NCBI GenBank assembly: GCA_040754115.1
Contig: JBFMDD010000018.1
Span: 1-45,484 of the forward strand
DNA: 45,484 nucleotides
Direction of reading: 5' to 3'
Source: a bacterium
GTDB taxonomy: Bacteria > UBA9089 > CG2-30-40-21 > SBAY01
A program made the translations under genes and the position numbers. The notes under the pieces are model-generated. The model was given only the letters and a program-made list of their open reading frames with translations, did not search any database and was not told where the DNA came from. The stretch's first letter is position 1, and each line of letters begins with the position of its first letter. Of the stretch, positions 7,790-42,642 are shown piece by piece.

Positions 7790-10074
7790 TCGAAAATGTA
7801 TTAGCAATTTTTATATTACTTTTACTCTTATCTATCTTCTTTTGGAAGGCTATTACTCTACAAGGGCTGTGGGTAACTGGTGAGTTTAGCCTGTCGGATA
7901 TTACAGAGCTTAATTTCCCACTTAAATATTTACTTTATGACTCATTACAAAAATTTTCACTTCCGTTATGGACTAAAGACCTGCTATGTGGCTATCCTGC
8001 ATTTGCAGAAGGAGAAGGTGGACATTTATATCCGTTGAATCTACTTCTTTTTTCTTTCCTGCCTCCATTAGCAGCATTTAATTACAGCCTTATTATCTCT
8101 TATTTATTAGCTGGATTTTTTACATATCTATTTGCCCGCAAGATTAAATTAAGTTGGTATTCCTCACTAATTAGTGGAATTATCTTTATGTTTTCTGGCT
8201 TTTTAGTTACTCATCTTAAACATCCATCTATGATTTCAGCCTGCTCTTTAATGCCTCTTTTGTTTTATCTTGTAGAGTGCTATTGGGGTCAGATTGGTTT
8301 GACCCCTTTAATTCTGGCTGGTGTTATCTTTGGCTTACAAATATTAGCAGGACATCAACAAATAACGGTTTATTCCATGGTTGGGGTAAGTTTATACTTT
8401 TTATTCAGATTTTTAATAACATTATTTATTGAAAATTATTCTCAGCCTAAAAAAAGGAGAAAAACAAAAAAACTCAATAAATTGAGGAAGCCATTTAAAG
8501 ATACAAGTCTAAAACTTGCATTCTTTACCTTAATAATCATTATTGGGCTTGGTATAGGAGCAGTCCAAATTCTACCTACCTACGAGCTTTCAAATCATTC
8601 CTATCGGTCAGCGGAAATAGGATTTGAAAATATTGTAAGATTCCCTTATCCTCCAAAACATCTAATCACATTTATCAAACCATATTTTTATGGTGATCCA
8701 GGTGAAGGAACATATTCTATACCAGGTGAAGAATGGGGTTTTTTCTGGGAAAATACAGGTTATGTAGGAATATTACCGTTAATTCTCTCACTAATTGGGA
8801 TAACCTTTATTTTTCTTAGAAATAAAAAGGCATCATTTTCTCCTGCAAATATCTTATCCAGTAACCAACACATTATCTTCTTTTCTTTTTTATTGATTTT
8901 TTCAATCCTGCTGGTATTAGGCAAATATGGTCCACTATTTCCTTTACTTAAGTTACCTGTTTTATCTACATTTAGATTTCCTGCACGATTTTTGATGTTA
9001 GTAGATTTCTCATTGGCTATCTTGACTGCATTTGGAATAGAGGTTTTATTGAATAAGGTTAAATTCAAGAAGATAATCAAATGTTGTATTCTGCCTATTA
9101 TTGTAATTGATTTATTTATCTTTGGGCTGAAATTTAATCCTACTATTTCACCTAAACTATGGTTTGAAAAACCTGAATCTGTAAAGTTTTTAGAAAAAGA
9201 TAAAAGCATATATAGAATTTATAGTCTTGGGGCAGAAGCGACCTGGAGTCATGTATATTTCAGTATAAGTCATGGCTGGCGAAAGAACCTGTTACCTTAT
9301 CTAAAACATCGAGAGATATTGGCAGTTAATTCCAATCTACTTCATGGAGTCTCAAATGCAGATGCCTATTTCCCACTTCTGCCTTTAAGACCATGGATGT
9401 TTAAAAAATTTATAGAACAAAATATTAATTTTGATAATCGTCGAGGAATAGCCATTATTCCACCACATCTAATGAAGATAATGAGTATGTTAAATATAAA
9501 CTACATCCTTTCATTTTATCAAGTTGAAAATGAGAAATTAGATTTAGTTAAAACAATTGATGTAGGAGAAGGATTGCCACCATTAAAGATTTATAAAAAC
9601 CATAGTTGTCTTCCAAGGGCATTTTTAGTACCAACTACAAGAGTAGTTTCTGATGCGAATAAGATTATCCAGGAGCTAACAAAAGAGGATTTTGAGCCTA
9701 AAAAGGAAGTAATTGTAGAAAAAGAAATTCCTCATCCCTCATCCCTCATCCCTCATCCCTCGTCCCTTGTTGAGATTGTAACTTACCAATCTAACAAAGC
9801 CATACTTAATGTTTCTTCCCCTACTGATTGTATTCTATTTATGAGCGATACTTATTATTCTAGCTGGAGAGTATTTATAGATGGAGTTGAAGGAGAGATA
9901 TTTCCTGCTAATTTAGGATTTAGAGGAGTTGCTTTAAGTAAAGGAGAGCATGAAGTAAAATTTGTTTACAAACCAAAGGCATTTAAAATAGGCTTAATTA
10001 TCACTTTGATAACCATCTTATTGCTCATTAGTTACTCTGGCGGCGTTATACTAAAACTGAAGGATAAATTTTAA
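7780..10074 (+). CDS. YfhO-family polytopic membrane protein (putative glycosyl-transfer / glycopolymer-modifying protein)
   Basis: Many TM segments. The C-terminal block FIDGVEGEIFPANLGFRGVALSKGEHEVKFVYKPKAFKIGLIITLITILLL resembles YfhO C-termini. I prefer ATG 7780 (MNRLENVLAIF...) over GTG 7741 because 7741-7779 is MITE sequence. Confidence 0.75.
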   Translation: MNRLENVLAIFILLLLLSIFFWKAITLQGLWVTGEFSLSDITELNFPLKYLLYDSLQKFSLPLWTKDLLCGYPAFAEGEGGHLYPLNLLLFSFLPPLAAFNYSLIISYLLAGFFTYLFARKIKLSWYSSLISGIIFMFSGFLVTHLKHPSMISACSLMPLLFYLVECYWGQIGLTPLILAGVIFGLQILAGHQQITVYSMVGVSLYFLFRFLITLFIENYSQPKKRRKTKKLNKLRKPFKDTSLKLAFFTLIIIIGLGIGAVQILPTYELSNHSYRSAEIGFENIVRFPYPPKHLITFIKPYFYGDPGEGTYSIPGEEWGFFWENTGYVGILPLILSLIGITFIFLRNKKASFSPANILSSNQHIIFFSFLLIFSILLVLGKYGPLFPLLKLPVLSTFRFPARFLMLVDFSLAILTAFGIEVLLNKVKFKKIIKCCILPIIVIDLFIFGLKFNPTISPKLWFEKPESVKFLEKDKSIYRIYSLGAEATWSHVYFSISHGWRKNLLPYLKHREILAVNSNLLHGVSNADAYFPLLPLRPWMFKKFIEQNINFDNRRGIAIIPPHLMKIMSMLNINYILSFYQVENEKLDLVKTIDVGEGLPPLKIYKNHSCLPRAFLVPTTRVVSDANKIIQELTKEDFEPKKEVIVEKEIPHPSSLIPHPSSLVEIVTYQSNKAILNVSSPTDCILFMSDTYYSSWRVFIDGVEGEIFPANLGFRGVALSKGEHEVKFVYKPKAFKIGLIITLITILLLISYSGGVILKLKDKF
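9730..9764 (+). repeat. Heptanucleotide array (CCTCATC x4 + CCTCGTC) inside the yfhO-like CDS
   Basis: Read directly. It is translated as IPHPSSLIPHPSSL. Confidence 0.9.
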
Positions 10075-10144: not shown

Positions 10145-10522
10145 GTAACCGTTCAGGTAGCTAAGAATTTTGCAGTTTATCAGGTTCAAGGTTCCATGTT
10201 CAGGGTTCAAGGTTACTAATCGATAAAGATTATACTGGACACTGCCATTAACTGAGCTATTTAGGGACGGTTTATTTTCATCGTTTTCACGGTGATTTCT
10301 TTTGGAAATTAGAAATTGGAAATTAGGTCTTCACTTCTTTCCCAAATTTCTAATTTCATATCCATTTCTTAACCGCAAGCTTTCACGCTAAAGTGAACCG
10401 TTTCTAAAATCGCAATTTGTAACGGTGTTGAGTATAAATGAATCCTTACAAACAGCTAAGCAAATCAACTCAGGAGCACACACCCAACCCTGAACCTTGA
10501 ACCGGGAACCCTGAACGGTTAC
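10145..10522 (+). mobile_element. MITE family A (termini GTAACCGTTCAGG / CCTGAACGGTTAC) carrying a nested MITE B
   Basis: The two halves (10145-10230 and 10437-10522) are collinear with the uninterrupted 170-bp copy at 15625-15794. The termini are inverted repeats and the arms contain (AGGTTCA)n heptamers. Confidence 0.8.
10231..10436 (+). mobile_element. MITE family B (206 bp; termini TATACTGGACAC / GTGTTGAGTATA) nested in MITE A
   Basis: Near-identical to 17409-17614. The filled site AAAGAT-TA-[element]-TA-AATGAA compares with the empty site AAAGATTAAATATC in the 15625 copy, suggesting a TA target duplication. Confidence 0.8.
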
Positions 10523-10651
10523 ATTTTTTCTTCGTGGTCTCCTAATCCTGTCAGGAACAAGCTTCGTGCCCTTCGTGGTTTATCTTAATTGCACAGGTCG
10601 AATTTTTTCTTCTCTGCGTCTCTGCGGTGAACAGTTACCTTTTTCACTTGT

Positions 10652-15624: not shown

Positions 15625-15794
15625 GTAACCGTTCAGGTAGCTAAGAATTTTGCAGTTTATCAGGTTCAAGGTTCCAGGTTCAGGGTTCAAGGTTACTAAG
15701 CGATAAAGATTAAATATCAAATCCTGACAAACAGCTAAGCAAATCAACTCAGGAGCACACCCCCAACCCTGAATCTTGAACCTTGAACGGTTAC
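15625..15794 (+). mobile_element. MITE family A, uninterrupted 170-bp copy
   Basis: GTAACCGTTCAGGTAGCTAAG...(AGGTTCA-type heptamers x5)...CTTGAACGGTTAC. It serves as the empty-site reference for the nested copies at 10145 and 23869. Confidence 0.8.
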
Positions 15795-17408: not shown

Positions 17409-17614
17409 TATACTGGACACTGCCATTAACTGAGCTATTTAGGGACGGTTTATTTTCATCGTTTTCACAGTGATTTCTTTTGGAAATTAGAAATTAGGTA
17501 TTCACTTCTTTCCCCAATTTCTAATTTCTAATTTCATATCCATTTTTTAACCGCAAGCTTTCACGCTAAAGTGAACCGTTTCTAAAATCGCAATTTGTAA
17601 CGGTGTTGAGTATA
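17409..17614 (+). mobile_element. MITE family B, full-length copy (206 bp)
   Basis: TATACTGGACACTGCCATTAACTGAGC ... GTAACGGTGTTGAGTATA. Near-identical to 10231-10436 apart from the number of central GAAATTA/AATTTCT heptamers. Confidence 0.8.
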
Positions 17615-17665
17615 ACTTAGTATATCAGAAATTGTTTAAAATGTCAACATTTTTAATTTTTTCTC

Positions 17666-17694
17666 TTGCCTTTATCAATATTTTCTGGTATAGT
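17666..17694 (+). promoter_or_regulatory. Promoter candidate for the HD-GYP gene (TTGCCT - 17 nt - TGgTATAGT)
   Basis: -35 at 17666-17671 and -10 at 17689-17694 with an upstream TG. The heptamer hairpin 17701-17834 would form the 5' UTR. Confidence 0.4.
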
Positions 17695-17700
17695 ATTAAG

Positions 17701-17834
17701 TAGAGAGTAGAGAGTAGAGAGTAGAGAGTAGAGAGTAGAGAGTAGAGAGAAATCAATAATAGGGAGTTAGATGAAAATCTCTCTACTCTCTACTCTCTAC
17801 TTGCTACTCGCTACTTGCTACTTGCTACTCGCTA
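17701..17834 (+). repeat. Heptamer-repeat hairpin: (TAGAGAG)x7, 29-nt spacer, then (CTCTCTA)x3 and (CTYGCTA)x5
   Basis: Counted directly: 17701-17749 is seven exact TAGAGAG units and 17779-17834 is eight units. CTCTCTA is the exact reverse complement of TAGAGAG. Confidence 0.92.
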
Positions 17835-17860
17835 CTTCTTTTTAAAGTGGGTGATGAGTT

Positions 17861-19517: not shown

Positions 19518-19548
19518 GTAATCGTTCAGGTGTAATGAAGGGAAAATA
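19518..19548 (+). mobile_element. Left-end fragment of MITE family C
   Basis: GTAATCGTTCAGGTGTAATGAAGGGAAAA matches the left end of the 343-bp element at 23049 (GTAACCGTTCAGGGTGTAATGAAGGGAAAAA). It is followed by (GTCTAAA)x2. No right end was found. Confidence 0.5.
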
Positions 19549-19623
19549 GAAAAGTCTGATGTCTAAAGTCTAAAGTCCAGTCTCTGAATCACAAATATCC
19601 TAAATTTAATTGGAGGAGCAAGT

Positions 19624-21072
19624 ATGAATTTAAAACAAGCTAATGAGTTAGCCTGGTTAAAGGAAAAGTATCCTGAGATGGATGTGGACAAGTTTGATCA
19701 AATTCGACAAAAATATCTAAATGGTGAATTGGAAGTAGTCTACGATGAGCAAATTCAATCGTTAAAGGGAACAAAGTATATGAGTTCCTATGAGGAATTG
19801 CCAGCCATTGAAGAACAAAATGGACTCCCTAAAGGCTACTTCCACAATAGAGGAGTTGAATTAGGAAGAAATAGCAAATTAGGTATGATAGTGTTAAATG
19901 GTGGTGTGGCTACATCGTATGAAAAGGAATTGGGCTATCGACCGACTAAAGGCATATTTCAAGCAATTATGTACACACCTATCAGTTTTATTGCTATCAA
20001 ACTCCATTCGATTTATCAATATCAAAAGGAAGGGATATTTATACCAACATATTTTATGAACAGTCCTGCTACTGATAAAGATACCAGAGACTACCTTGAA
20101 AAATTTAATAATTTTAATCTAAAAATCAAGCCAAAACATTTCTGCCAGGATTTAGGTTGGCCAAGAATCGACCCGCAAACAGGTAGCTTAATTACCCGCA
20201 AAAGTGGTAGAGTAAGCGTGGTTACCAAAGGGCATGGTGATGTGTATCAGGCATTTGATAAAAGTGGACTTTATGATGAATTTGTAGATAAAGGTGGAGA
20301 GGTGCTTTTAATTTGTAATATTGATAACTCAGAGGCAAAAATAGATATGGCTATTGCAGGTTACTTCTCATGGCTTAATGAAACACAAGGAGTACAAATA
20401 ATGTTTGAATCTGCCCCACAACTCCAAGATGACAAAAAGGGAGGAAAATGCGTATTGATGAAAAGACCTGATGGGAATATGGGGCCTGGAATATTAGAAC
20501 TAACTCGGATTTCACCCAACCTGCATGATGACTTGCAAAATATACAAGAATTTAATACCAATATGTGTTGGTTACATACCTCAATTGATAGAAGGTTATT
20601 TGATTTACCGTTCCGGGTGGTAAAAAAAACCCGCTTGAGTGATGTTGATGACCCGGAAATCAGTAAGAGTGGCGATGAGCAGGTAATACAATTTGAACAT
20701 GAGTCCCATAAACTAATGGAACTTGTAGAGTTAGGTCATTCACATGTGCTTTTAGTCCCACGAGATTTACGATTCTGGCCTAATAAATACTTCCATGACC
20801 AGATTAAAAAACAAAAACAATTAGTTGAAAAGTATAAAGAGCTGTATGATTGGATGTTTGAATTAAATCCCAAGGCTAATGAAAGTATCCTACAAGTCAA
20901 GGATGAATTGCTAAAGCAACTGGGGTTTGAAAAAGAAATTGTAACTTCGAGAATAAAGATTAGAGGATTAGAAGATAAGAGAGTAGAGAATCTTAGGTGT
21001 ATCGGGACAGTTCACTTTTGTTTGAAAGCTTGCGGAAAGAAAAGAGAGTTGAAATTGAAAGGTAGAAATTAG
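19624..21072 (+). CDS. UDPGP-family (UTP-hexose-1-phosphate uridylyltransferase-like) protein; the C-terminal ~40 codons read through repeat DNA
   Basis: Motifs VLNGGVATSY, KGHGDVYQAF and CNIDN resemble eukaryote-type UGPase/UAP family signatures. From about 20950 the ORF runs into heptamer and MITE-B-like sequence (..GTVHFCLKACGKKRELKLKGRN). Confidence 0.6.
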   Translation: MNLKQANELAWLKEKYPEMDVDKFDQIRQKYLNGELEVVYDEQIQSLKGTKYMSSYEELPAIEEQNGLPKGYFHNRGVELGRNSKLGMIVLNGGVATSYEKELGYRPTKGIFQAIMYTPISFIAIKLHSIYQYQKEGIFIPTYFMNSPATDKDTRDYLEKFNNFNLKIKPKHFCQDLGWPRIDPQTGSLITRKSGRVSVVTKGHGDVYQAFDKSGLYDEFVDKGGEVLLICNIDNSEAKIDMAIAGYFSWLNETQGVQIMFESAPQLQDDKKGGKCVLMKRPDGNMGPGILELTRISPNLHDDLQNIQEFNTNMCWLHTSIDRRLFDLPFRVVKKTRLSDVDDPEISKSGDEQVIQFEHESHKLMELVELGHSHVLLVPRDLRFWPNKYFHDQIKKQKQLVEKYKELYDWMFELNPKANESILQVKDELLKQLGFEKEIVTSRIKIRGLEDKRVENLRCIGTVHFCLKACGKKRELKLKGRN

Positions 21073-21208
21073 AAATTAGAAAATTGGCATAGAATTAGAA
21101 GTTTTTCTTTCCATTTTCATACAAATGGATATCCGAAAGAAACCATAGGAAAAACGATAAAATAAACCGTCCCGGTGTATCTTTTAACCAGACTACCTGA
21201 ACTGTTAC
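21004..21208 (-). mobile_element. Degenerate MITE B-like copy followed by a family-A-type right terminus (CCTGAACTGTTAC)
   Basis: GGGACAGTTCACTTTTGTTTGAAAGCTTGCGG...(GAAATTA)n...GGAAAAACGATAAAATAAACCGTCCC aligns with family B in reverse orientation. The terminal CCTGAACTGTTAC is at 21196-21208. Confidence 0.55.
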
Positions 21209-22439: not shown

Positions 22440-22602
22440 TATACTCAACACTGTTACAAATTGCGATTTTTAGAAACGGTTCACTTTAGCGTGAAAGCTT
22501 GCGGTTAAAAAATGGAGTTGAAATTGGAAAGTAGAAATTACATGGAAAACGATGAAAATGAACCGTCCCTAAATAACTCAGTTAATGGCAGTGTCCAGTA
22601 TA
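22440..22602 (-). mobile_element. MITE family B, reverse orientation (163 bp), in the hisI leader
   Basis: TATACTCAACACTGTTACAAATTGCGATTTTTAGAAACGGTTCACTTTAGCGTGAAAGCTTGCGG...CAGTTAATGGCAGTGTCCAGTATA is the reverse complement of the 10231 and 17409 copies. Confidence 0.8.
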
Positions 22603-22628
22603 TCTTTAATCAAGGAGATGGAAACAAA

Positions 22629-22955
22629 ATGGAGTTTAAATTTGATGAAAAGGGATTAATTCCAGCAATAATTCAAGATGAGGCGACCAAAGATGTTTTA
22701 ATGGTAGCTTATATGAATAAGGAATCTTTACAAAAAACATTAGAAACTGGGAAAACACACTTTTGGAGTCGGTCAAGACAAACATTATGGTTAAAAGGAG
22801 AGACTTCTGGACATTATCAATTAGTTAAAGAGATATGGTATGATTGTGATGAAGATACATTATTAGTTAAGGTAGAACAAATAGGTGATGTTGCGTGCCA
22901 TACGGGTGAGCGAAGCTGCTTTTATAGAAAATTATATCCTGCAACTGATGTGTAA
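22629..22955 (+). CDS. hisI: Phosphoribosyl-AMP cyclohydrolase HisI
   Basis: [34 protein letters not shown]...[12 protein letters not shown]...[39 protein letters not shown] upstream of ATG 22629. The 22512 start of the tracked ORF lies inside the MITE and is rejected. Confidence 0.9.
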
Positions 22956-22978: not shown

Positions 22979-23852
22979 ATGACCGATATAATTCCAGTTG
23001 AAAAAATAGAGAATAGAATATTTCAGATAAGAGGCAAGGTAACCGTTCAGGGTGTAATGAAGGGAAAAATGGGAAATAATGGGAAAAGGGGGAATTTATT
23101 TTTATGTATAGGAATTTGATAGTTGTTCTGGTCATTCCCACATTATAGTCTTTGGAAAAGTAAGTTCCTCTTTTTGGAGTGCGGTAGCTTGCTACCGCTT
23201 TGAGCAAATCGCAAGCACGCTCTCGCCGTCCAAAGCGAAAGCAAGCTTTCGCACTCCACATTTTGAACATACTGATCACTGTTCACTGAACATACTGATC
23301 ACTGAAAATTAAAATTTGAAATGAAATCCTCTAATATTTTTCCTATTTTCCCTACTTTTCCATTTTTCCTTACTTACACCTGAACGATTACGAGGCAAGA
23401 AGGTAATGCTGGATAGAGATCTGGCAGAATTGTATGGCGTTTCAACAAAGGTTTTAAATCAAGCGGTTAAAAGAAATTTAAAAAGATTCCCGGAAGATTT
23501 TATGTTTAGGTTAACTAATGCTGAAAAATACAAGGTGGTCACAAATTGTGACCACCTTAGAGTATTAAAATTTTCACCACAATTACCGTTTGCTTTTACT
23601 GAGCAAGGTGTGGCAATGCTTTCAAGCGTTTTAAACAGTGAAAGGGCTATTATGGTGAATATTCAGATTATGCGTGCTTTTATAAACTTGTGAAGGATTG
23701 GTTTAACCTATGTTGAATTAAAACGAAAAATTGAAGCAATAGAGAAAAAATATGATGAACAATTTAAGGTTGTTTTCCATGCGATAAAGAAGTTATTAGA
23801 GCCAACACAAGTAGAAGGGAAAAAGAGGAAAATAGGATTTCGTAATAGTTGA
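22979..23852 (+). pseudogene. ORF6N-domain (KilA-N-related DNA-binding) gene, disrupted by a MITE insertion and an in-frame TGA
   Basis: Exon-like parts: MTDIIPVEKIENRIFQIRGK (22979-23048) and, after the [40 protein letters not shown]...[13 protein letters not shown]...[10 protein letters not shown], then TGA at 23691-23693. The same frame continues RIGLTYVELKRKIEAIEKKYDEQFKVVFHAIKKLL...GFRNS to the stop at 23850-23852. Confidence 0.8.
23049..23391 (+). mobile_element. MITE family C (343 bp), termini GTAACCGTTCAGGGTGTAA / TTACACCTGAACGATTAC, flanked by a perfect 8-bp TSD GAGGCAAG
   Basis: TSD copies at 23041-23048 and 23392-23399. Removing the element plus one TSD copy restores the ORF6N frame (IRGK|KVMLDRD). 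It contains a GC-rich double hairpin (23176-23257) and no credible ORF. Confidence 0.88.
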
Positions 23853-23868
23853 AAAGGGAATTATACTT

Positions 23869-23971
23869 GTAAGCGTTCAGCTAATAATTTTGCAGTTTAT
23901 CAGGTTCTAGGTTCAGGGTTCAAGGTTCAAGGTTCAAGGTTCAAGGTTCAAGGTTACTAAGCGATAAAGAT
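23869..23971 (+). mobile_element. MITE family A left half (GTAAGCGTTCAG...) with an expanded heptamer array (8 units); right half absent
   Basis: Collinear with 15625-15711 and 10145-10230, but with 8 rather than 5 AGGTTCA-type units (23902-23957). It is followed by a MITE B at the same internal junction as in the 10145 copy. Confidence 0.7.
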
Positions 23972-24267
23972 TATACTGGACACTGTCATTAACTGAGCTA
24001 TTTAGGGACAGTTTATTTTCATTTTCATCGTTTTTCACGGTGATTTCTTTTGGAAATTGGAAATTAGAAATTGGGGGACGGTTCATTTTCATCGTTTTTC
24101 CTGTGATTTCTTTTGGATTTTAGGAATTGTTCATGGAACGCTGAAATTGGAAATTAAACTTTCACTGCTCTCCCCAATTTCTAATTTCATATCCATTTTT
24201 TAACCGCAAGCTTTCACGCTAAAGTGAACCGTTTCTAAAATCGCAATTTGTAACGGTGTTGAGTATA
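23972..24267 (+). mobile_element. MITE family B copy with an internal partial duplication (296 bp)
   Basis: The termini TATACTGGACACTGTC ... GGTGTTGAGTATA are as in the other copies. The segment GGGACGGTT.ATTTTCATCGTTTTTC..GTGATTTCTTTTGGA occurs twice. Confidence 0.75.
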
Positions 24268-24323: not shown

Positions 24324-25805
24324 ATGTATTATCCAACTAAAGAAGAATTCAAGCAAAAGGCAAAGCAGGGTAATTTGATACCTGTTTATAAAGAGATTTT
24401 AGGTGATTTAGAGACACCTGTTTCTGCATTTTATAAGATTAGTCAAGGTGGAAAATATGGCTATCTTTTAGAGAGTGTAGAAAAGGGAGAAAAATTAGGC
24501 AGATACTCGTTTTTAGGCGCTTCTCCTTCCATAATATTCAAATCCAAAGGTAGCCAGGGAGTGATTATCAAAGATGGGAAAGAAGAAATCTTCAATGTGG
24601 CTAATGACCCATTAATTCAACTTAAAAAATTAATGAGTCAATTTAAACCCGTTAAGGTAGATGGCTTACCAAGATTTTATGGAGGAGCAGTAGGCTACCT
24701 GAGTTATGATTATGTCAGGTTTATAGAAGAGTTGCCTGATAAAAATCCAGATAACCTTAATTTACCAGATACATTCTTTGTTATTACTGACACAATTCTT
24801 ATCTTTGACCATCTACTTCAAACCATAAAAGTAGTTTCAAATGCTTATGTAGATAAAGACCCAGATTTAGCTTATGAAAAAGCAATAGAACAAATTGAAG
24901 GGATAATCACTAAATTACGGCAATCGATACCAGTTCGAAATTCGAAATTCGAAATTCGAAATTCGAAATTCCCATTCCAATCTAACTTTACCAAAAATGG
25001 ATTTGAGAAAATAGTAAAAGGTGCAAAGGAATATATCAAAGCGGGAGATATAATTCAGGTTGTTCTTTCGCAAAGACTTACTGGAAAGATTCATTCAGAG
25101 CCGTTGACTGTATATCGGGCGTTAAGAAGAATAAATCCTTCGCCGTATATGTTTTATCTAAAATATGATGAGGTAAATATTGTCGGTTCTTCTCCAGAAC
25201 TTTTAGTAAGATTAGAAGAAGGAGAGGTAGAAACCCGGCCTATTGCAGGGACAAAGCCTCGTGGCATCAATGAAAAAGCAGATGATAAGTACGCTAAAGA
25301 GTTGTTAGCAGACCCAAAGGAAAATGCAGAACATATCATGTTAGTTGACCTGGGTCGCAATGATATTGGGAGGGTGTGTGAGTATAAATCAATTCATCTG
25401 CCTGAATTTATGGTTATAGAGAAATACTCACATGTAATGCACATTGTTACCTCAGTAAAAGGGAAACTCCTACCTCAATATGATGCCTTTAGTTTAATAA
25501 GAGCTTGTTTCCCCGCAGGAACAGTTACGGGTGCTCCTAAAGTGAGGGCTATGGAGATAATCAATGAATTTGAACCTGAACGAAGAGGCCCTTATGCTGG
25601 ATGTGTGGGCTATTTTAGCTTCTCAGGTAATTTAGATACCTGTATTACTATTAGAACTATTGTTATTAAAGATGGTAAAGCCTACCTGCAAGCTGGAGCA
25701 GGAATTGTGGCAGATTCTAACCCAGAAACTGAATATTATGAGACGATGAATAAACTTAAATGCTTAATTGATGCTGTTGAATTAGCAGAGAAAGGACTAC
25801 AATAG
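24324..25805 (+). CDS. trpE: Anthranilate synthase component I TrpE
   Basis: LLESVEKGEKLGRYSF, AGDIIQVVLSQR, INPSPYMFYL, RPIAGT, GTVTGAPKVRAMEII and AGAGIVADS motifs. AGGAGA RBS. No trpG or trpD follows. Confidence 0.93.
   Translation: MYYPTKEEFKQKAKQGNLIPVYKEILGDLETPVSAFYKISQGGKYGYLLESVEKGEKLGRYSFLGASPSIIFKSKGSQGVIIKDGKEEIFNVANDPLIQLKKLMSQFKPVKVDGLPRFYGGAVGYLSYDYVRFIEELPDKNPDNLNLPDTFFVITDTILIFDHLLQTIKVVSNAYVDKDPDLAYEKAIEQIEGIITKLRQSIPVRNSKFEIRNSKFPFQSNFTKNGFEKIVKGAKEYIKAGDIIQVVLSQRLTGKIHSEPLTVYRALRRINPSPYMFYLKYDEVNIVGSSPELLVRLEEGEVETRPIAGTKPRGINEKADDKYAKELLADPKENAEHIMLVDLGRNDIGRVCEYKSIHLPEFMVIEKYSHVMHIVTSVKGKLLPQYDAFSLIRACFPAGTVTGAPKVRAMEIINEFEPERRGPYAGCVGYFSFSGNLDTCITIRTIVIKDGKAYLQAGAGIVADSNPETEYYETMNKLKCLIDAVELAEKGLQ
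24934..24968 (+). repeat. Heptanucleotide array (TTCGAAA x5) in frame inside trpE
   Basis: Counted directly. It is translated as VRNSKFEIRNSKF, in the linker preceding the conserved ...KEYIKAGDIIQVVLSQR block. Confidence 0.92.
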
Positions 25806-25862: not shown

Positions 25863-26207
25863 ATGGAGACTTTATTGAAAGTGGCTATTAAAAAAGAATA
25901 TAAGGATATTTTGGAATCTTTGGGAGATTTTCAAGGAGTGGTCAATAACGCTTTAAGAAGATATGTATTAGATATAGGCAGTGAGCGAGTTGAAAAATGT
26001 GAGATAGAAATTAAAAAATTAGAAGGAAAGTATCATTGTTCATTTAAAACATTTCTTTCTAAAGTAGGTACAGATAAAGATATTACATTCCTACAACAAT
26101 TAGAAGAAAAATATCCTATGTGGGAAAGCGATTTTAACCTATGGGAAACCTATATCACGGAGTTGAATAAATGGAAGGAAAAGATGAGTATTATTTTGAA
26201 AGGTTAA
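25863..26207 (+). CDS. Hypothetical protein, possible antitoxin partner of the downstream DUF6516-like gene
   Basis: 114-aa ORF with a GGAGG RBS. Its stop overlaps the next start (TAATG). No motif recognised. Confidence 0.45.
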   Translation: METLLKVAIKKEYKDILESLGDFQGVVNNALRRYVLDIGSERVEKCEIEIKKLEGKYHCSFKTFLSKVGTDKDITFLQQLEEKYPMWESDFNLWETYITELNKWKEKMSIILKG

Positions 26208-26584
26208 TGAATTTAATCTACCAAAAGTTTGAAGAAGTGGTAATCATTAGAAAGGATATTACCCCTCAAGTCTTTATATTAGAAGTAAATTGTATCTATA
26301 AATCATATAGAGTAGTAATATCTGAAATAGTTGATTTAATGGGTAGAAAATATGCATTTTATATCCTAAAGGATAATTCAATAATTGTAGGATTTGATAA
26401 TTCACCAGATTATAGAGCTATAAAATTAAAATACGAAGAATATTTCAAACATCACTATTATGAAAGAGTTCCTCATCAGCATACATCTAAAAAGAAAGGA
26501 ATTTATCTAACAAAAGATATGAGAGTAGAAGATTTTATAGAGTGGTTAGAACAAGAATTAGAAAACTATCTTAAAACTTGTTAG
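26207..26584 (+). CDS. DUF6516 / TumE-like toxin-antitoxin family protein (tentative)
   Basis: KYAFYILKDNSIIVGFDNSPDYRA....VPHQHTSKKKG resembles the DUF6516 pattern (..rYDNaPHh...PhHkH..). ATG 26207 forms a TAATG overlap with the upstream gene. An alternative start is 26171. Confidence 0.4.
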   Translation: MNLIYQKFEEVVIIRKDITPQVFILEVNCIYKSYRVVISEIVDLMGRKYAFYILKDNSIIVGFDNSPDYRAIKLKYEEYFKHHYYERVPHQHTSKKKGIYLTKDMRVEDFIEWLEQELENYLKTC

Positions 26585-30012: not shown

Positions 30013-30055
30013 GATTTTTTTAAGAGGGTGTGTTGAAAAAGTCATTTTTTGAAGC

Positions 30056-30233
30056 CTCTCGGATAAAAATAAGGTTCAAGGTTCAAGGAGAAAGGAACAA
30101 GGTAGAGTAACCTTGTTCCTTGCACCTTGATCCTTGATCCTTGATCCTTGATCCTTGATCCTTCAGTGGGGGTGAAGAAGGAATTATCTGCTCGGAAAGG
30201 CTAATAAAATCAACCCTCAATTTTATCCGAGAG
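30056..30233. repeat. Hairpin / MITE-like element with terminal inverted repeats (CTCTCGGATAAAAAT / AATTTTATCCGAGAG) and opposed heptamer arms
   Basis: The 5' arm is (GGTTCAA)-type and the 3' arm is (CCTTGAT)x5. The central perfect stem is AAGGAACAAGGT-agagta-ACCTTGTTCCTT. The arms are complementary except for one periodic mismatch per heptamer. Confidence 0.7.
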
Positions 30234-30521
30234 CGTTCTTTTTAGGAAAGGGGGTAGTTTTTGGGGGTGAATTTTCTAAAAACTGCAAAACCGCCTATCT
30301 CTTTGAATTTGAACATCTCCTTTTTATCCTTACTTTTTATTTTTCTTAATCTTTCTTTTCCCTCATCTCTCCTTTGAAGACTAACTAAAGAAAAAATAGG
30401 TAACTTCATAAAATAAGTAAGAGAACAATTCTTATGCAGATACTCTGGAGCATCAAGACTTACCACCAATATATCCTCATCAACAAATAAAATTATTCCA
30501 TCTATACTCCAGTGGGGTATA

Positions 30522-31909: not shown

Positions 31910-31965
31910 CTCTCTACTCTCTACTCTCTACTCTCTACTCTCTACTCTCTACTCTCTACTCTCTA
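31910..31965. repeat. Heptamer array (CTCTCTA x8; TAGAGAG on the coding strand) spanning the stop of the upstream rSAM gene and the gap before the next
   Basis: Counted directly as eight exact units. The stop codon (31949-31951) and the last ~5 codons (..VESRE) of the 31949-33106 ORF lie inside the array. Confidence 0.92.
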
Positions 31966-33106
31966 CTTTACTTGTATCCCATATCCCTGGTATCGATTCC
32001 TTGCAATATGTGCATTTACCATCCTGAATGTTATTCTCAACTACCTTAAACCCAAACCTCTTTATTATTATTTTTGAACAGTGATGACAATAGGTATTTT
32101 CTCCTGAATGACCAGGAACATTACCGATGTAGACATATTTTAATCCTGAAGAAAAAGCTACTTGTCGAAGTGTCTCTAATTTGTGCACCGGTGTTGGAGG
32201 TAAATGTTCTAATTTATAATAAGGGAAAAATCGGGCAAAATGTAATGGAACATCATCCCCTAATTCATTTTTAATCCACTTGCACATCTTTTTGGTTATC
32301 TCTAAATCATCGTTTTTGGTAGCTATTATTAAAGTAGTAATTTCTAAATGTACACCTTCTTCTTTTAATATTTTTAGTGTATTTTTAACCGGCTCAATCC
32401 ATGCTGATGACATTTGATTATAATATTCATCCGTAAAACCTTTCAGGTCAATATTAGCTGCATCTATATATTTACATAATTGCCTCAATGGATTTGGATT
32501 GATGAAACCATTTGAATGATAAGCATTCATCAGTCCCTTTTCTTTTGCTAACATGGCTATATCAAGCATATATTCAAAGAATATAGTTGGTTCTGTATAT
32601 GTAAATCCGATTGAGGGGCATTTCTTAGATAAAGCGGCTTTTACTACCTCCTCATGCCCGATAGGGAAATTCATTGTCTCTTCTGGTTTTGATTGTGAAA
32701 TCTGCCAGTTCTGACAGAACTTACATCGTAAATTACAACCAGCAGTAGCTAATGAGAGAATCTGTGTTCCTGGTAGGAAATGGGAAAGAGGTTTTTTCTC
32801 AATTGGGTCCTGATGTATAGCACATGGATTGCCGTATACAAGAGTGGTTAATTTCCCTTTTTGATTTTCTCTTGCTCCACAAAAACTCCTCTCTCCTTCA
32901 CGAAGAAGACATCTTCGTGGACAGAGTTGACACTGGACTCGCTGATTTCCAAATGATAGATAATACAGTGCCTCTTTGGATGAAATATATCCTTTTTTAC
33001 CTGAAATCTCTTTCCCTTCAGTGGTGTTATGTAAAAAAGGAGTACTCGTTAATGCTAAACTTAATATAGAGATCTTTTTTAAGAACTCCCTACGAGTCAA
33101 TTTCAT
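31949..33106 (-). CDS. AmmeMemoRadiSam-type radical SAM enzyme (AmrS-like) with an N-terminal twin-arginine signal-like sequence
   Basis: GCNLRCKFCQNW (CX3CX2C), a conserved N-terminal CQLCPRRC...FCGAR block and a C-terminal CHHC...CTYC tail. The N-terminus is MKLTRREFLKKISILSLALTS. There is no in-frame ATG between residue 1 and about residue 145. Confidence 0.8.
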   Translation of the reverse strand: MKLTRREFLKKISILSLALTSTPFLHNTTEGKEISGKKGYISSKEALYYLSFGNQRVQCQLCPRRCLLREGERSFCGARENQKGKLTTLVYGNPCAIHQDPIEKKPLSHFLPGTQILSLATAGCNLRCKFCQNWQISQSKPEETMNFPIGHEEVVKAALSKKCPSIGFTYTEPTIFFEYMLDIAMLAKEKGLMNAYHSNGFINPNPLRQLCKYIDAANIDLKGFTDEYYNQMSSAWIEPVKNTLKILKEEGVHLEITTLIIATKNDDLEITKKMCKWIKNELGDDVPLHFARFFPYYKLEHLPPTPVHKLETLRQVAFSSGLKYVYIGNVPGHSGENTYCHHCSKIIIKRFGFKVVENNIQDGKCTYCKESIPGIWDTSKVESRE

Positions 33107-33326: not shown

Positions 33327-36300
33327 TTATTCTATTGTTGGCGGGAGGTTGACATGGATTTTGACTTTCTTTGTATCTTCTCCACCTTTACCATCGGTTA
33401 CTTTGAAGGTTATTTGATAAGTACCATTCTGGTCTTTGGTAGGACGCCAACTGAAAATTTTAGTTTCTTTAGAAAAACTTGCACCTTCGGGTAAAGAGGA
33501 TATAGCATAAGTTAATTTGTCATCATCTGGATCAAAGCCTGAAACATTGAATTGTAATAATTCACCTATATTTATTATTGTATCTTTTATTATAGATAGT
33601 GTAGGAGATATATTTTTATCAATTATAGTTAATACCCAATTTTGAAGTACTACAGATGTTCCATCTGTTATAGTTAAAATTAGTGTTTTAATTCCTGCAT
33701 CTATATGACTTGGAGTGTATGTCCATGCGTTATCAGTAGATTTTTCTACTCCATCCAGTTTCCAATTATATTTTATTTCATCATGATTAGGGTCTGATGC
33801 ATATACCTCAAAGGTTAATGGCTCCCCTTCAAATATAGTTGGTGATAAATCTACTGGTGTGTACGACCAGATTATTGGCGAAGGATTAAATGTAGTAAAC
33901 TTCCAGGTAACTGGTTTTTGGAGATAATTACCCATTATATCTCTTGCCTCCATTGAAACACTCACTGTATATTTTGTATTTCCTGATAAATCAGAGATAG
34001 GTGTAAAAATAAGTTTATTTGCCCTCCATGTAAAACTGCCTAAGGTATCAGGCGTAATAGAAAATGCCTGTATTACTGACTCCTCATCCATCTTTTCACT
34101 AAAAGTGATTGTAATAACTTCTTCAGGTGAAACATTACTCCCAGTTGGAGTATAAGCTATTATCTTGGGGAAAATACTGTCTTTAGGAATCCCTACATAC
34201 TGAGCAGAAGGCATAGATTTATTCCCATAAATATCAAAGGTAAAGAAGGTGTAATAATAAGGTAAATTATTGACCAGAGCAGTATCAATATAAGTAGTCT
34301 CTTTTATTCCATCTGCTATAAGATTTCCTAATTTACCTTTAACAATCGAGCGATAAATCTGAACATGTGAGAATAAAAATGCCTTTTCTTTTGGCTTTTG
34401 CCAGCTTAATTTTAATTTCTCTCCTCCTTCTAAAGGTGTAATAGAGACTTCTGTTGGTAATGAAGGAGGTAGCGTTAATGTTATGCCAGAAGAGGATCTG
34501 CAATATTCTGAACTACCATTTTTATTAAATGCCTTTATTCTATAATAATAAGTTGTATCTGGAAGGAGATTTTTATCTTGATAATTGGTGGTATTCGGTA
34601 AGAGAATTGTCAATTGAGTATAAGCCTCATGCGGCGTACCTCGTTCAACAATAAAGCCTGATTCATCTTTTGAGTTATCCCTAAAGCTAATGTTTATCTG
34701 AGAATAAAACACTACCTCTGTAACTAAATTATCCGGAGCAATCGGTGGTTTATACCCTTTACCTATGGCATATAGTTGCCCATTATTAGCTCCTACATAA
34801 ACAGTCCCATCTTTACCAATATTCGGAGATGTACTAATTTTAGAGTCAATAGTATAATTCCATTTTAACTTCCCATTTTTTGATATACAACATAAATTAT
34901 AATCCTTTGAGATGGCATATATATTTCCCGCAGAATCAATTATTGGACTAAAAGTACTCCACCCAATAGGATATTCCCATAGAATTTTACCATTTTGTGC
35001 CACAGCTCTTAAACTACCTTCTTGAGAATTCCAACATATATTATAATAAATTATACCATCAGGAGTTATAATTGGTGAGAAATTCAGCCAACCTTTTCCC
35101 TCATGCTCAATTTTAAATCGAATCGTTCCTTGAGGAGTGAAAGAATAAAGTGCATTATTAAGTCCAATATAAACATTCCCATTTGAGTCGATTGCAGGGG
35201 CTGTAATAGCCTCACCTGCGGTTGTATATTCCCATTTAAGCATACCAGTTGAATCAAGGCAAAATAGCCCACCATCTATTCCTTTTGCACCGATGTAGAT
35301 ATTTCCATTAACATCAATTGCTGGAGTGAAAGAAATCATTCCACCACCAATATAGCTTGACCACCTGAGTCTTCCATCTGGATGAATAGAATATACCTTC
35401 CCATTCCATGTAAATACATGAATTGCAAAATTATGTCCAATTACAGGAGAGCTCTCAATCGGGAATTTAATAGGATATTTCCACTTTAATGTCCCATCTG
35501 GTAATATAGCATATAGATTTTTATCCGAAGATAATACATAGATTACTCCATCCTCACCAATTACTGGTGATGTATTTATCGCTCCTTGCGTAGGATAACG
35601 CCATATTAATTCACCTTTGGAAGAAAGACAATAAAGATATGAATCTTCTGAACCTATATAAATCCTTCCTTTAGTATCAATTAAAGGATTAGAGCGATAA
35701 ATTCTATATTTAGTAGGATATGTCCACGAAAGGGCAGGAGAATCTATACCTGAATAAGGACTTATACCAGCTGGTTGAATTTTAGGTGCTGGTTTAGGCG
35801 GTGCAAGATGTGTCTTAACCATGGTTATATTTGAGTAGTCAGAGTTACCATCCTGATTATACGCCCTTACACAATAGTAGTAAGTTGTATTTGGAGTAAG
35901 TTGTATATCATGATATGAGGTAGTGTTTGCAAGGGTAACAGCTACCTGAACAAACTCTTTCTCATCTATAGTTTTGCGCTCTATTTTAAATCCCAACTCA
36001 TTATCTGAATTATCTTTCCATGTAAGTTTTATCTCGAAGTGAGAAATAGGTATTGCTTCCAGGTCAGTTGGAGGTGAAGGAGTAATTTGAGTTATTTCTG
36101 TAGAAACCTCTTCTGAGTATTTAGAGTATCCTTCATCATTATATGCACGGATTCGATATAGATAAGTAACTTTTGGTAAAAGCCCGGTATCCTGATATTC
36201 AGTTATATCCTTTGATACTGTATTTAGTTGTATATAGGTACCATCTTCTTGCTTCCTTTCTATTTCAAATCCTAATTCATTTATAGAGTTATCCTGCCAT

Positions 36301-39300
36301 GTCAATTTTATTTTATCCGGTAATAAATGTGAAATGCGAAGATTGGTTGGTGCAATAGGTACAACATCTAATGTTTTACACTCTACTTTATTGGAATAAT
36401 ATGAATCCCCAAGAGAATTATAAGCACATATGCGATAATAGTAAGTAGTATTTGGAACTAAATTTTTATCCTGATATGTAGTGGTATTGGCTAAAGTAAG
36501 AGCAATTTGCGTGTAGGCTTTTTCATCCTCGCTTCGTTCTATCTTAAATCCTCGTTCATTCTTTGAATTATCTTGCCAACTAAGTTCTATTTGAGTAGTT
36601 GAAATAGGTTTTGCAAGTAAATCAAATGGTGGATAAGGAAGGGTATCTTTTGTAGTAACCCCTTGCTCATTTGAATAACTGGAGTTACCTGCTTGATTAT
36701 ATGCCCTTATTCGATAATAATAAGTTGTATTTGGTTCTAAATATTTATCTTCATATATAGTAACATTTGCTCCAAGTATGAACATCTCCTCATAATTTTT
36801 ACCTTCTTCTTTTCGCTCAAGTTTAAATCCTAACTCATTATCTGAATTATCCAGCCATGATAAATTTATCTGATTTGAAGAAATAGCGTTAACTTTAAGA
36901 TTTGTTGGAACAAATGGCACAACAGGTAAAGTAGCAATCGTCAGTAAATTTGAGTATTCAGAGTTACCAATCCAATTGTATGCCCTTACTCGATAGCAAT
37001 AAGTTGTATTAGGAGTAAGGTCACAATCTTGATAAGAAGTGGTATCTTGGTTCAAAATGGCTATTTGAGTATAAGCTAATTCGGTATCAGCCCTTCTTTC
37101 TACCTTAAATCCTACCTCATTATTTGAGTTGTCTTGCCAGAAGAGTTTTATCCGTGTACTTAGATTTGATACCCCGGTTAAATCAGTAGGTGGTGCAGGT
37201 AATATATCCAATGTCCTTACGCCAGATACTGTTGAATAATCAGAATCACCTAACTTATTGTATGCTCTTATACGATAATAATAAGTAGTATCTTTTCTAA
37301 GTCCTTTATCTATATACGAAGTAGTATTAGGAGGTAAAATTTTTATCTGAACATATTCTTGTAGAGGTAATGCTCGCTCTAATTTAAACCCTTGTTCATT
37401 ATTTGAATTATCCTGCCATGCAAGTTCTATCGCACTTTTTGAAATAGGCTTAACCTGTAAATTAGTTGGTGCTGGAGGTGGAGCATCTGTGGTTTTAACC
37501 ATGATTTCTTTTGAATAATTTGATAAACCTACATCATTATAAGCTACTACTCGATAAAAGTAAGTAGTTAATGGAGTTACAGTTGTGTCTTTTAAAGTTG
37601 TAGTATTAGCTGGTAGTACTTCAATTAAGGCATATTCCCCATCTGGTTTTCTTCTTTCAACTTTAAAACCTTGTTCATTGTCTGAATTATCCTTCCACTC
37701 AAGAACTACCTTGTTTGATGAAACCTGTATTGTTTTCAAATTACGAGGTGGTAGTGGCGGTAAAGACTTAGTTGTAACCTCAACTTCATTTGAATAATCA
37801 GAATTACCCATATCATTAAAAGATAAGACTCGATATGAATAAGAAGTAGCTGGTGTTAAGTTCGTATCTTGAAATGAAGTACTATTGGCAGGCAGGGTTT
37901 TTATCTGGGTATATTCTTTTATTTTTCTTTCGACTTTAAATCCTTGCTCATTATCTGATGTATCAAGCCATGTAAGACTTACTGCTGTTGATGAAAAATT
38001 TATTACCTTTAGCTCTTTTGGAGCAGTAGGAGGTGGAGTTTTTGTAGTAACAGTTATTTCATTGGAATATTCAGACATTCCAACTTCATTATAAGCCACT
38101 ATACGATATGAATAATTGGTTCCAGGACTAATATTTACATCTTGGAAGGTGGTAATATTTGGGTCTACAGTATTTATTAAAATGTATTTTTCATCCTTTA
38201 ATTTTCTCTCTATCCGAAATCCTTGTTCATCTTCTGAGTTATCTGTCCAGGAAAGTGTTATTTGGGTAACTGATACATCTATCGTCTCTAGATCAGTTGG
38301 AGGATTTGGAGGTAATGAAGGTAATAAAGACTTAGTGGTAGCTTCATTCTGGACTGAATATTCAGAAAAGCCCATTTTATTATAAGCCACTACGCGATAT
38401 ATGTAGGTAGTACCTGGGTTAAGCGCTACATCTAAAAATGAGGTAGAGTCAGGTGGTAAAATTTTTATTAAGGTATAACTTTGGTCTTTTAGTTTACGAT
38501 AGATTCTATATCCTAATTCATTATCTGCATTATCCTGCCAGGTAAGCATTATCTCTTCAGAAGATACTGAAGTTATAAGAAGATTAGTAGGTGAATCAGG
38601 AGGTGTAATCTTTTCCTTTTCCACTACTTCCTTTACTTCCTCTATCTTCTCTATCTTCTCTATCTTCTCTATCTTCTTTACTTCTTCTATTTTCTTCTTT
38701 ATTGGCTTAGGAATTGTGACCTTAGGTTTTGTAGGGGTTATTGGTGTAATTTCAGAGCCAATAGCATATAAATTCCTATCCCGACTACCAACATAAATAG
38801 TTCCATCCTGACCTATAGCTAAAGATGTTGGACCATGTCCAACATCACAACTCCAAATTATCCTTCCTTCTTTTGGCTCAACCGCATGAACTTTACCATC
38901 AAAAGAGGCAATATAAATTATACCATCTGAAGTAATAACAGGTGCAGAATTAAAAATCCTACCTGTTTTTGCACACCAAATACCTTTAGAAGTAATACCG
39001 TAAAGTCCCTCATTGCTACCAATGTAAATAAAACCATCTTTTGATATAGCAGGGGAAGAGTAAATAGGAGAGTCAAGTTGGATAGAAAGTAGATTTTCAT
39101 CTTTAGTTATAACTAATATAAGTCTATTTGAACAACCTACATAAATATTTCCTTCTGAATCGATTGCAGGTGATGAGAAGGCGGATATTTTAAGATCTTT
39201 TTTAAATCTAATGCTTCCATCTTTGTTTATTGCATGTAGAGTACCATCATTACAGCCAATGTAAATTATGCCCTCATTACTAATAGCAGGCGAAGACTGG

Positions 39301-39848: not shown

Positions 39849-39861
39849 ATATAAAGGCAAT

Positions 39862-40035
39862 TTAGAACCTCTTTTTTCTGCGAGCGATAATTCTTCTTCT
39901 TCTCTCACTCGGCTTTTCATAATACTCACGTTTCTTCATTTCAGTAATTATCCCTGCTGATTGGCATGAGCGTTTAAATCTCCTTAACGCATTATCAATA
40001 GATTCATCATCTCGAATCTTTATTCCTGCCGGCAT
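39862..40035 (-). CDS. rpsU: 30S ribosomal protein S21
   Basis: [60 protein letters not shown] at 40033-40035. The longer tracked ORF start (40098) is rejected. Confidence 0.9.
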
Positions 40036-42237: not shown

Positions 42238-42401
42238 AATTGAAAAATCACCTTTACGAGTATCGCCTATTGTTAAAAATATTTCTGAAGAGGGGGTGCG
42301 AATATGACGGATAAGGAAATACTTTTTTCGTACAGATTAAGGCAGGCAGAAGAAACACTTCACGATGCCGAAAAAATGTTACTGGGAGACTTTACACCTA
42401 G

Positions 42402-42638: not shown

Positions 42639-42642
42639 CTAG

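Follow-up and report, generated by a model that had tools for sequence, protein, structure and literature searches.

Unit numbers differ between heptamer arrays in copies of a foldback-like miniature inverted-repeat transposable element from an uncultured bacterium

The window studied here is one 45,484-bp contig (JBFMDD010000018.1) of the metagenome-assembled genome (MAG) GCA_040754115.1, taken at its full length, with a GC content of 34%. At positions 23902–23957, it carries a tandem array of heptanucleotides, which a preliminary description assigned to a transposable element of the miniature inverted-repeat type (MITE) and, given eight units here versus five in other copies, took as direct evidence that such arrays expand and contract. 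The locus raises the question of what the array belongs to, how its unit number changed, and whether the period of seven nucleotides calls for a mechanism peculiar to the lineage. About 89 kb of sequence from relatives was compared with the window, giving a repeat census of about 134 kb in the clade. We consider it likely that the array is the subterminal left-arm array of a truncated, non-autonomous, foldback-type MITE (family A), and that its unit number changed after the copies had separated.

The array, on the forward strand, contained eight units with a perfect run at 23917–23955. Read in register, it consisted of AGGTTCT, AGGTTCA, GGGTTCA, four AGGTTCA, and AGGTTAC, while the arrays at 10182–10216 and 15662–15696 each had five units (AGGTTCA, AGGTTCC, A(T/G)GTTCA, GGGTTCA, and AGGTTAC). 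The copy numbers given by Tandem Repeats Finder (TRF) were 7.7, 4.7, and 4.7, respectively, in agreement with this reading, and the reported difference of eight versus five units was thereby reproduced; the four identical units reported earlier were consecutive, with five identical units overall. Taking GGGTTCA and AGGTTAC as marker units, we found that the 23902 array had one unit less ahead of GGGTTCA and four perfect AGGTTCA units more behind it; therefore, at least one contraction and at least one expansion lie between the family A copies. A plain expansion by three units was ruled out, as the marker units give a loss of one and a gain of four. The perfect extra units have the appearance that a recent expansion would be expected to leave.

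The two arms of a single copy were also unequal. With the copies numbered by position, the left and right arms of MITE A held 5/4 units in copy 1, 5/3 in copy 2, and 8/none in copy 3, the right arms differing by four versus three GTTCxxG units. For a second family, MITE B, the earlier counts of 3+2 (copy at 10229) and 2+3 (copy at 17409) were seen in the alignment, and four further copies of B or of its core differed again; the units per arm of the B core were 3/2, 2/3, 3/4, and 2/2. A difference in unit number is in itself ordinary behavior for short tandem repeats.

One explanation of the counts is short-read assembly error in repetitive DNA, given that the contig comes from a MAG and that MITE-rich regions are hard to assemble. 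However, the arrays measure 33–58 nt, which is below the typical read length, each copy has unique flanks, and independent assemblies of relatives show similar arrays, including one at the orthologous trpE position. Assembly error is thus scarcely credible as the source of the unit numbers.

The arrays belong to elements with shared ends. The 13-nt terminal inverted repeat GTAACCGTTCAGG was present at 10 sites in paired orientation in the window versus 0.31 expected, and none of 100 shuffles reached 10. Ends of this type bounded elements with differing internal arrays, both in the window (families D and C) and in a related MAG. The family A arrays iterate the terminal repeat's inner 7 nt (unit GTTCAGG / GTTCAAG), and the right-arm array begins at the terminus itself (GTAACC followed directly by GTTCAGG GTTCCCG GTTCAAG and so on). 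Copy 2 (15625–15794, forward strand) is intact, with a length of 170 bp and the ends GTAACCGTTCAGG / CTTGAACGGTTAC, and provides an "empty site" for MITE B. Copy 1 (10145–10522, forward strand) contains a nested MITE B at 10233–10434, with AAAGAT-TA on the left and TA-AAT on the right of the junction. Copy 3 (23869–23973, forward strand), which carries the array in question, consists of the left half only and starts with a degenerate terminal repeat, GTAAGCGTTCAGC, that has two mismatches and a 4-nt deletion. No right arm was found anywhere downstream of it, and A right-arm sequence occurred only twice in the window. The earlier assignment of this locus to MITE A therefore stands for a left arm with eight units and not for a complete element.

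MITE B is composite: an outer element (TACTGGACAC...GTGTTGAGTA), whose ends TACTGGACAC / TACTCAACAC match at 8 of 10 positions, carries an inner core (GACGGTTYA...TGAACCGTT). The copy of outer element plus core that abuts A copy 3 (23974–24265, forward strand) has TA on both sides and is inserted in A at the same junction as in A copy 1; the left half of its core, including the GAAATTR arm, is partly duplicated. Another copy with outer element and core lies at 17411–17612 (forward strand; central hairpin GAAATTA ×2 / TAATTTC ×3), and a copy with the central arrays deleted lies at 22442–22600 (reverse strand), some 29 nt upstream of where hisI really starts. The core occurs alone at 7627–7795 (reverse strand; ends GACGGTTCA...TGAACCGTT, arms GAAATTA ×4 / TAATTTC ×3) and, in degenerate form, at 21007–21173 (reverse strand), where it extends over the 3ʹ end of the UDPGP open reading frame (ORF). 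All four B-outer copies are flanked by TA. The empty site in A copy 2 reads AAAGAT-TA-AAT, against AAAGAT-TA(B)TA-AAT when filled, and copies 1 and 3 are filled with TA on both sides, which is consistent with duplication of TA. The order of nesting is B-core within B-outer and B-outer within A.

Other members with related ends carry arms of other periods. MITE D (23039–23391, forward strand, 353 bp) has the ends GTAACCGTTCAGG / GTAATCGTTCAGG and arms made of the 9-mer arrays GGGAAAAAT / TATTTTTCC, and it is flanked by a perfect 8-bp target-site duplication, GAGGCAAG, at 23031–23038 and 23392–23399. A D-like left end, GTAATCGTTCAGGTGTAATGAAGGGAAAA..., at 19518–19600 (forward strand) carries an AAAGTCT ×3.9 array 47 nt upstream of the UDPGP start. 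Family C is represented by a right half (10523–10641, forward strand) that contains TTCGTG motifs, two units of the 8-mer TCTCTGCG, and then GTGAACAGTTAC; the family C terminal repeat, GTAACTGTTCACC, has three mismatches to GTAACCGTTCAGG, so it lies outside the 10 counted sites. Full C-type copies with the same ends were present in the related MAG GCA_040757115.1 (locus L010, 11257–11465; locus L029, 2206–2424). An inverted-repeat-bounded element without assigned strand at 30051–30238 encloses a hairpin of AAGGTTC-type units versus CCTTGAT ×7.6. Apart from MITE D, the target duplication was 6/8 in a T-rich context at A copy 2, which is ambiguous, and none was present at A copy 1 or at the L010 and L029 copies. 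The elements were 170–353 bp in size, with three A and six B or B-core copies in the 45 kb and no Pfam-supported ORF within them.

The arms were complementary, and predicted folding was well below that of shuffled sequences (z = −5.1 for MITE A, −6.3 for MITE B, −7.4 for the B core, and between −4 and −9 for all elements), in line with the earlier proposal that opposed arms form hairpins within the MITEs. No Pfam-supported transposase was present among the 30 window ORFs scanned, and Rfam at the gathering threshold gave no match in the whole window. The MITE A 19-mer TTTGCAGTTTATCAGGTTC gave chance matches only, nine in public genome contigs and 15 in metagenome contigs; they were in unrelated genomes of higher GC, with similarity not extending past about 20–40 nt. 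A MITE B 23-mer had no match in viral contigs, and the composite at 10145–10641 had none among plasmids by blastn. Three other classes were considered and rejected. REP/REPIN elements (RAYT) were ruled out by the 8-bp target duplication at D, and no Y1 transposase was present in the window; a CRISPR-like array was ruled out, the units being contiguous without spacers; and a composite transposon over UDPGP, between terminal-repeat sites at 19518 and 21196, had no matching target duplication, its ends coming from different partial elements. A further MITE-like sequence at 42398–42642 has 42-nt inverted ends (83% complementary) and a central 9-mer array of ATTTCCTTA type (×7.4), a layout similar to that of the BOX and BrickBuilt elements discussed below.

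That the elements transposed and nested is shown by their terminal repeats, by the target duplication at D, and by the occurrence of A with and without a B insertion. Family A is part of a MITE superfamily defined by GTAACCGTTCAGG and having arms of short tandem units, and its elements transposed, as we infer by a DDE-type mechanism, into intergenic DNA and into one another. After the copies had separated, unit number would have shifted through strand slippage while DNA was replicated or repaired, or through unequal exchange, with the 23902 array losing one unit before GGGTTCA and gaining four perfect AGGTTCA units after it, and with the two arms of single copies drifting apart to 5 versus 4 and 5 versus 3. 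Replication slippage is the most likely mechanism of the change, and free-standing arrays would vary in length in the same way.

Several points weigh against this account. An autonomous transposase partner was found neither among the window ORFs scanned nor in the scans of public collections, and only one member (D) has a clear target-site duplication. MITEs A and B occurred in no public collection searched, and the counts come from three A and six B copies on one contig of the genome. Copy 3 is the most diverged A copy, and its difference could partly predate transposition, having arisen in another master copy. As for the claim that the arrays expand and contract, the differing counts of paralogues, the perfect extra units, and the marked loss and gain support it, with slippage as the putative mechanism.

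The structure of the ends suggests another explanation, in which the subterminal arrays consist of repeated binding sites for a transposase, resembling the ends of eukaryotic Foldback, Galileo, and P-type elements, and unit number changes mainly at transposition or gap repair. This would fit the derivation of the family A unit from the terminal repeat, the right-arm array starting at the terminus, and the inverted orientation of the arrays in both arms; Foldback-like elements likewise have arms that are internally repetitive and vary in length (PMC3573991, PMC4079207). However, members with the same ends carry unrelated units and periods (GGGAAAAAT, AAAGTCT, and CGCAGAGA), many arrays are located outside recognizable elements or within genes, and the ends have no known transposase. 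We regard iterated binding sites as an unlikely explanation.

Whether seven is a favored period was assessed by counting arrays. TRF found 27 non-overlapping period-7 arrays in the window versus 1.5 per dinucleotide shuffle, together with six period-8 and eight period-9 arrays, each versus about 1.6 per shuffle. Perfect arrays of at least three units numbered eight at period 7 in the 45-kb window and zero at periods 5, 6, and 8, and 50 window shuffles gave 0.0 at period 7. In the 89 kb of clade relatives, there were four such arrays at period 7 and 2, 0, and 3 at periods 5, 6, and 8, respectively, while 190 kb of unrelated control loci had none at any of these periods. The pooled TRF arrays of the relatives were barely more frequent at period 7 than at period 8 (18 versus 15). 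The period-7 excess over neighboring periods is thus real in the window at the scale available, and the same phenomenon was present in relatives, where it was weaker. Once the MITE copies were collapsed, the number of independent heptamer loci was still about a dozen or more, and the 28 arrays fell into about 18 unit classes.

The distribution was less even than first described. Instead of nearly every intergenic region, 13 of the 25 that are at least 30 nt long had a period-7 array; none lay beyond 32 kb, and the TRF listing had none in the last third of the contig. Of the heptamer units listed earlier, TTCGAAA (in trpE) and CCTCATC (in a YfhO-like ORF) are in coding sequence, and TTCGTGN has period 9 (TTCGTGTAA). 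Many arrays were located 2–47 nt upstream of start codons, and others between convergent genes or within ORFs. The unpaired perfect array at 31910–31967 (AGTAGAG ×8.3 on the reverse strand) lies 15 nt upstream of a radical-SAM/HHH gene start and overlaps the upstream gene's stop. The period-7 preference is the bias toward heptamers that has been documented for long simple sequence repeats (SSRs) in many prokaryotes, and it is unusually strong in this uncultured lineage.

Arrays inside genes bear on how such repeats are kept. In the window, a perfect TTCGAAA ×5.4 array at 24934–24971 (forward strand) lies in the part of trpE that links the two Pfam domains and encodes RNSKFEIRNSKF. The linker array was present in five genomes, the other four at L010 2591–2633, L012 8970–9005, L011 4231–4250, and L030 1682–1722, and persisted down to 66% TrpE identity in L030. 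It was internally perfect in the window, L010, and L030 and mixed or degenerate in L012 and L011, and from species to species its unit changed at one or two bases (AAATTCG, AAATCCG, AAATCCG/AAATCCA, and AAATCAA). Such a pattern is the mark of concerted evolution, which recurrent gain and loss of units would produce, and it supports array turnover independently of the MITEs. In a further trpE, at L031, the period is now 21 nt and in frame. A CCTCATC ×5.4 array in the YfhO-like ORF (9730–9767, forward strand) encodes IPHPSSLIPHPSSL, and L030 carries two perfect five-unit heptamer arrays, AAAGTCC in a GATase-domain gene (3756–3791, peptide KSPKSKVQSPKS) and another in the gatA amidase gene (6913–6947, peptide GHRSPVTGHRS in a variable loop). 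The coding arrays give seven-residue peptide repeats in variable loops, such as RNSKFEIRNSK in TrpE. A change of one unit in the coding heptamer arrays of trpE, the YfhO-like ORF, the GATase gene, or gatA would shift the reading frame of the gene.

The preliminary description had gone on to propose a lineage-specific mechanism or selection for period-7 arrays. In its strongest form, a dedicated process, such as an odd polymerase, primase, or repair activity or the loss of mismatch repair, would seed and homogenize 7-nt arrays genome-wide. The 27 arrays in 45 kb versus 1.5 expected, the four perfect arrays of the relatives versus zero in the control, and the perfect arrays in housekeeping genes (trpE, the GATase gene, and gatA), with that of trpE kept at such low identity, speak in its favor. 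Set against them, heptamer bias is widespread and tentatively put down to ordinary polymerase slippage, periods 8 and 9 are enriched as well, the relatives' census hardly separates periods 7 and 8, no candidate enzyme was identified, and the census covers about 134 kb. We consider such a process distinctly unlikely. The excess density is real; a lineage-specific mechanism is not required, because the known heptamer bias together with slippage in a MITE-rich genome suffices. The unusual density and the homogenized coding arrays across the clade leave room for something lineage-specific.

A second setting in which arrays recur is the 5ʹ end of an HD-domain gene. A hairpin of AGTAGAG ×7.3 versus CTCTCTA/CTYGCTA ×8.3 (17692–17837, forward strand; minimum free energy −81 kcal/mol, z = −9.3) directly follows the conserved promoter of this gene and ends 25 nt before the ATG. 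The divergent GalT/HD promoter, with TTGCCT-17-TATAGT on one strand and TTGACA-17-TATACT on the other, was kept in three species (window 17616–17837, L028 9594–9850, and L029 2143–2520), and in all three the HD promoter is directly followed by an opposed-array hairpin, with unrelated units and arms that are still complementary. The arrays were AGTAGAG / CTCTCTA at period 7 in the window, (T)ATAAAGTT / its complement at period 8–9 in L028, and GGAATTC-type / GAATTCC-type at period 7, with a C-type MITE in the loop, in L029. Each genome seems to have its own favored units scattered over several loci. Either genome-specific foldback elements insert preferentially at this site, or a 5ʹ-terminal hairpin is maintained there through sequence turnover. 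Stem-loops at the 5ʹ end can protect bacterial mRNAs. The coding arrays and the hairpins in 5ʹ untranslated position are more surprising than the finding on unit number.

Further paired arrays were observed in the relatives. A second hairpin of (T)ATAAAGTT units lies between the HD and His_Phos genes at L028 8492–8592, and in GCA_040757115.1, GGGACTC/GGGATTC arrays are paired with GARTCCC arrays (L010 10360–10625; L029 2143–2205 and 2425–2450), similar to the inverted GGGAATC pairs of Xanthomonas, with other elements inserted in the loops; in L010, the right arm abuts a ribosome-binding site and ATG.

Such positions raise the possibility that arrays and hairpins are selected cis-regulatory modules, acting as 5ʹ mRNA stem-loops or as arrays of protein sites, with unit number tuned or serving as a contingency switch. 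It would account for the many arrays just upstream of start codons, for the hairpin at the HD promoter in three species with complementary arms at periods 7, 8–9, and 7, and for the L010 arm next to the translation start, and there are precedents in the TAACTGA repeats close upstream of start codons (PMC4679880) and in the TTTTGAT heptads of the ctxAB promoter (bioRxiv 10.1101/2021.05.14.444153). It would not account for the 23902 array, which has no partner arm and, with another MITE in between, lies 369 nt upstream of trpE, nor for the arrays between convergent genes and within ORFs, and with some 18 unit classes among 28 arrays, a single binding protein is unlikely. As a general explanation, selected regulation is possible and rather doubtful. 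If array hairpins do control mRNA stability or translation, they would form a rapidly evolvable regulatory layer. A more far-reaching proposal, which we offer with little confidence, is that clade-wide active turnover keeps heptamer arrays homogenized over long spans of evolution, even in housekeeping genes, and maintains paired arrays as 5ʹ-terminal mRNA hairpins at fixed regulatory positions through complete unit replacement between species; the arms would co-evolve, and the hairpins would be a new class of fast-evolving cis-element.

The MITEs also affect gene ends. The UDPGP ORF (19624–21072) encodes 482 aa by ORF translation versus 444 (L011) and 431 (L012), and its extension beyond the point where the relatives stop amounts to about 24 codons, or 37 by ORF translation; about the last 21 codons and the stop come from the B-core MITE at 21007–21173, whose insertion seems to have substituted a new stop for the original one. 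The mechanically called hisI ORF (22512–22955) starts 39 codons early, since relatives' HisI aligns from MEFKFDEKG (about 22629), and the false extension is encoded by the MITE B copy at 22442–22600. The start call of the YfhO-like gene is likewise distorted by a MITE. Between hisI and trpE, the spacer is about 1.37 kb long versus 90 and 213 nt in relatives, being inflated by an ORF6N-domain gene and by MITEs D, A, and B. The ORF6N-domain gene (23406–23853) has an in-frame stop after codon 95, beyond which the same frame goes on for about 50 codons (...KRKIGFRNS*), and is probably a pseudogene. For annotation, this means that MITEs can lengthen or hide gene ends.

Other repeats and genes of the contig are recorded here for completeness. 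The 1556–2523 spacer has two tandem duplications that are perfect or nearly so, one of 44 nt (1827–1914) and one of 35 nt (2114–2183), and the 35-mer holds a ribosome-binding-site-like AGGAGG followed by ATG. A 2,200-aa protein encoded at 33327–39929 (reverse strand) has, besides beta-propeller and Ig-like domains, about ten fn3 repeats with a DNA period of 279 nt, and within it lies a 9-mer array, CTCTATCTT ×6.2 (38640–38695). Toxin-antitoxin-like genes (TumE-like, ParE-like, and a nucleotidyltransferase/HEPN pair) are present at 26171–26584 and 43219–44878.

What kind of organism the window comes from matters for the comparison with known heptamer families. Among the matches listed, the TrpE relatives nearest in sequence (83–88% identity) were MAGs and metagenome contigs, and the named ones, at about 61–63% identity, were Omnitrophica, Desantisbacteria, and Nitrospirae; for GalT, the nearest named relative in the list (79%) was labeled Nitrospirota. 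The best listed relatives of both proteins were unclassified MAGs or carried the labels Nitrospirota, Omnitrophica, or Elusimicrobia. No cyanobacterial name appeared among the 120 matches listed for TrpE or GalT, most of which had no name at all. The window encodes CheB/CheR, GGDEF proteins, histidine kinases, and radical-SAM enzymes, besides the fn3 protein, and no match to photosynthesis families was obtained in the 30 ORFs scanned. From the names of the relatives and the gene content, we conclude that the host is non-cyanobacterial and not a heterocystous cyanobacterium. A cyanobacterial origin and membership in the short tandemly repeated repetitive (STRR) sequences were ruled out by the relatives and by the heptamer units.

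The STRR heptamers of heterocystous cyanobacteria, reportedly described by Mazel et al. in 1990, are tandem and non-coding, with several unit types per genome. The window resembles them in having heptanucleotide tandem arrays, and differs in its non-cyanobacterial host and in that CCCCAGT, TTGGTCA, and CAACAGT never occur in tandem. TAACTGA arrays are found in Beggiatoaceae, many non-heterocystous Cyanobacteria, and Bacteroidetes; they have 2–6 or more units, often just 5ʹ of start codons and some in ORFs, inverted pairs are rare, and closely related Cyanothece strains differ by 7-nt indels (PMC4679880). That system has one dominant unit, whereas the window has many, with 12 single TAACTGA sites and none in tandem. 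In Xanthomonas, about 185 intergenic GGGAATC arrays of 2–26 units include 70–75 convergent inverted pairs able to form stem-loops, and their length varies across species, whereas arrays that are paired or single stay so (PMC4692102). The Xanthomonas unit is G-rich with G-quadruplex potential, and the arrays are not described with terminal repeats or target duplications; GGGAATC arrays are absent from the window, and the related MAG has GGGAYTC / GARTCCC pairs. Because none of the canonical units of these families is tandem in the window, its arrays stand outside the STRR, TAACTGA, and GGGAATC families, and yet they are of the same kind.

More generally, Mrazek et al. 2007, as summarized in PMC4679880 and PMC4692102, reported that tandem runs of 5–11-nt units longer than chance are mostly intergenic, coding DNA having mainly multiples of three, and that heptamers are the commonest class of long SSRs in most prokaryotic genomes, with polymerase slippage as the proposed cause. 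The window arrays are alike in being longer than chance and most frequent at period 7 among periods 5–11; compared with that survey, they stand out by their very high density, their many unrelated units, their frequent location within MITEs, and the perfect heptamers in housekeeping genes. The earlier suggestion that the combination seen here was undescribed outside heterocystous cyanobacteria does not hold, as heptamer excess, 7-nt indels, and inverted heptamer pairs have already been published elsewhere (PMC4679880, PMC4692102).

BOX of Streptococcus pneumoniae (PMC3049150) and BrickBuilt of Porphyromonas gingivalis (PMC4596501) are bacterial elements similar to MITEs in which the number of internal tandem modules differs between copies and strains. 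Like these, the window elements are small, non-coding, and dispersed, have inverted-repeat ends, are predicted to form stem-loops, and occur clustered and nested with other repeats. BrickBuilt differs in having 23-nt modules between its ends, whereas in the window units of 7–9 nt form both arms in inverted orientation; the BOX module, likewise between the ends, has 45 nt. We found no description of a bacterial MITE superfamily in which both arms consist of 7–9-nt units derived from the terminal repeat, the cyanobacterial prior art having been incompletely checked. A similar architecture is that of Foldback-type transposons, such as FB of Drosophila, Galileo (PMC3573991), and Tetris (PMC4079207), which have long terminal inverted repeats built internally of short tandem units and variable in length. 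In FB, Galileo, and Tetris, as here, arm lengths differ between copies and between arms, a likeness in architecture only; these transposons come from eukaryotes, are much larger, and have transposases, known or suspected, of P or MuDR type. The window adds bacterial MITEs with a foldback-like build, whose arms come from the iteration of a few terminal-repeat bases, and carries the biology of heptamer arrays into a lineage that is uncultured and non-cyanobacterial. It also offers two handles on why the unit is 7 nt, namely orthologous coding arrays evolving in concert and a promoter-proximal hairpin kept as its sequence turns over.

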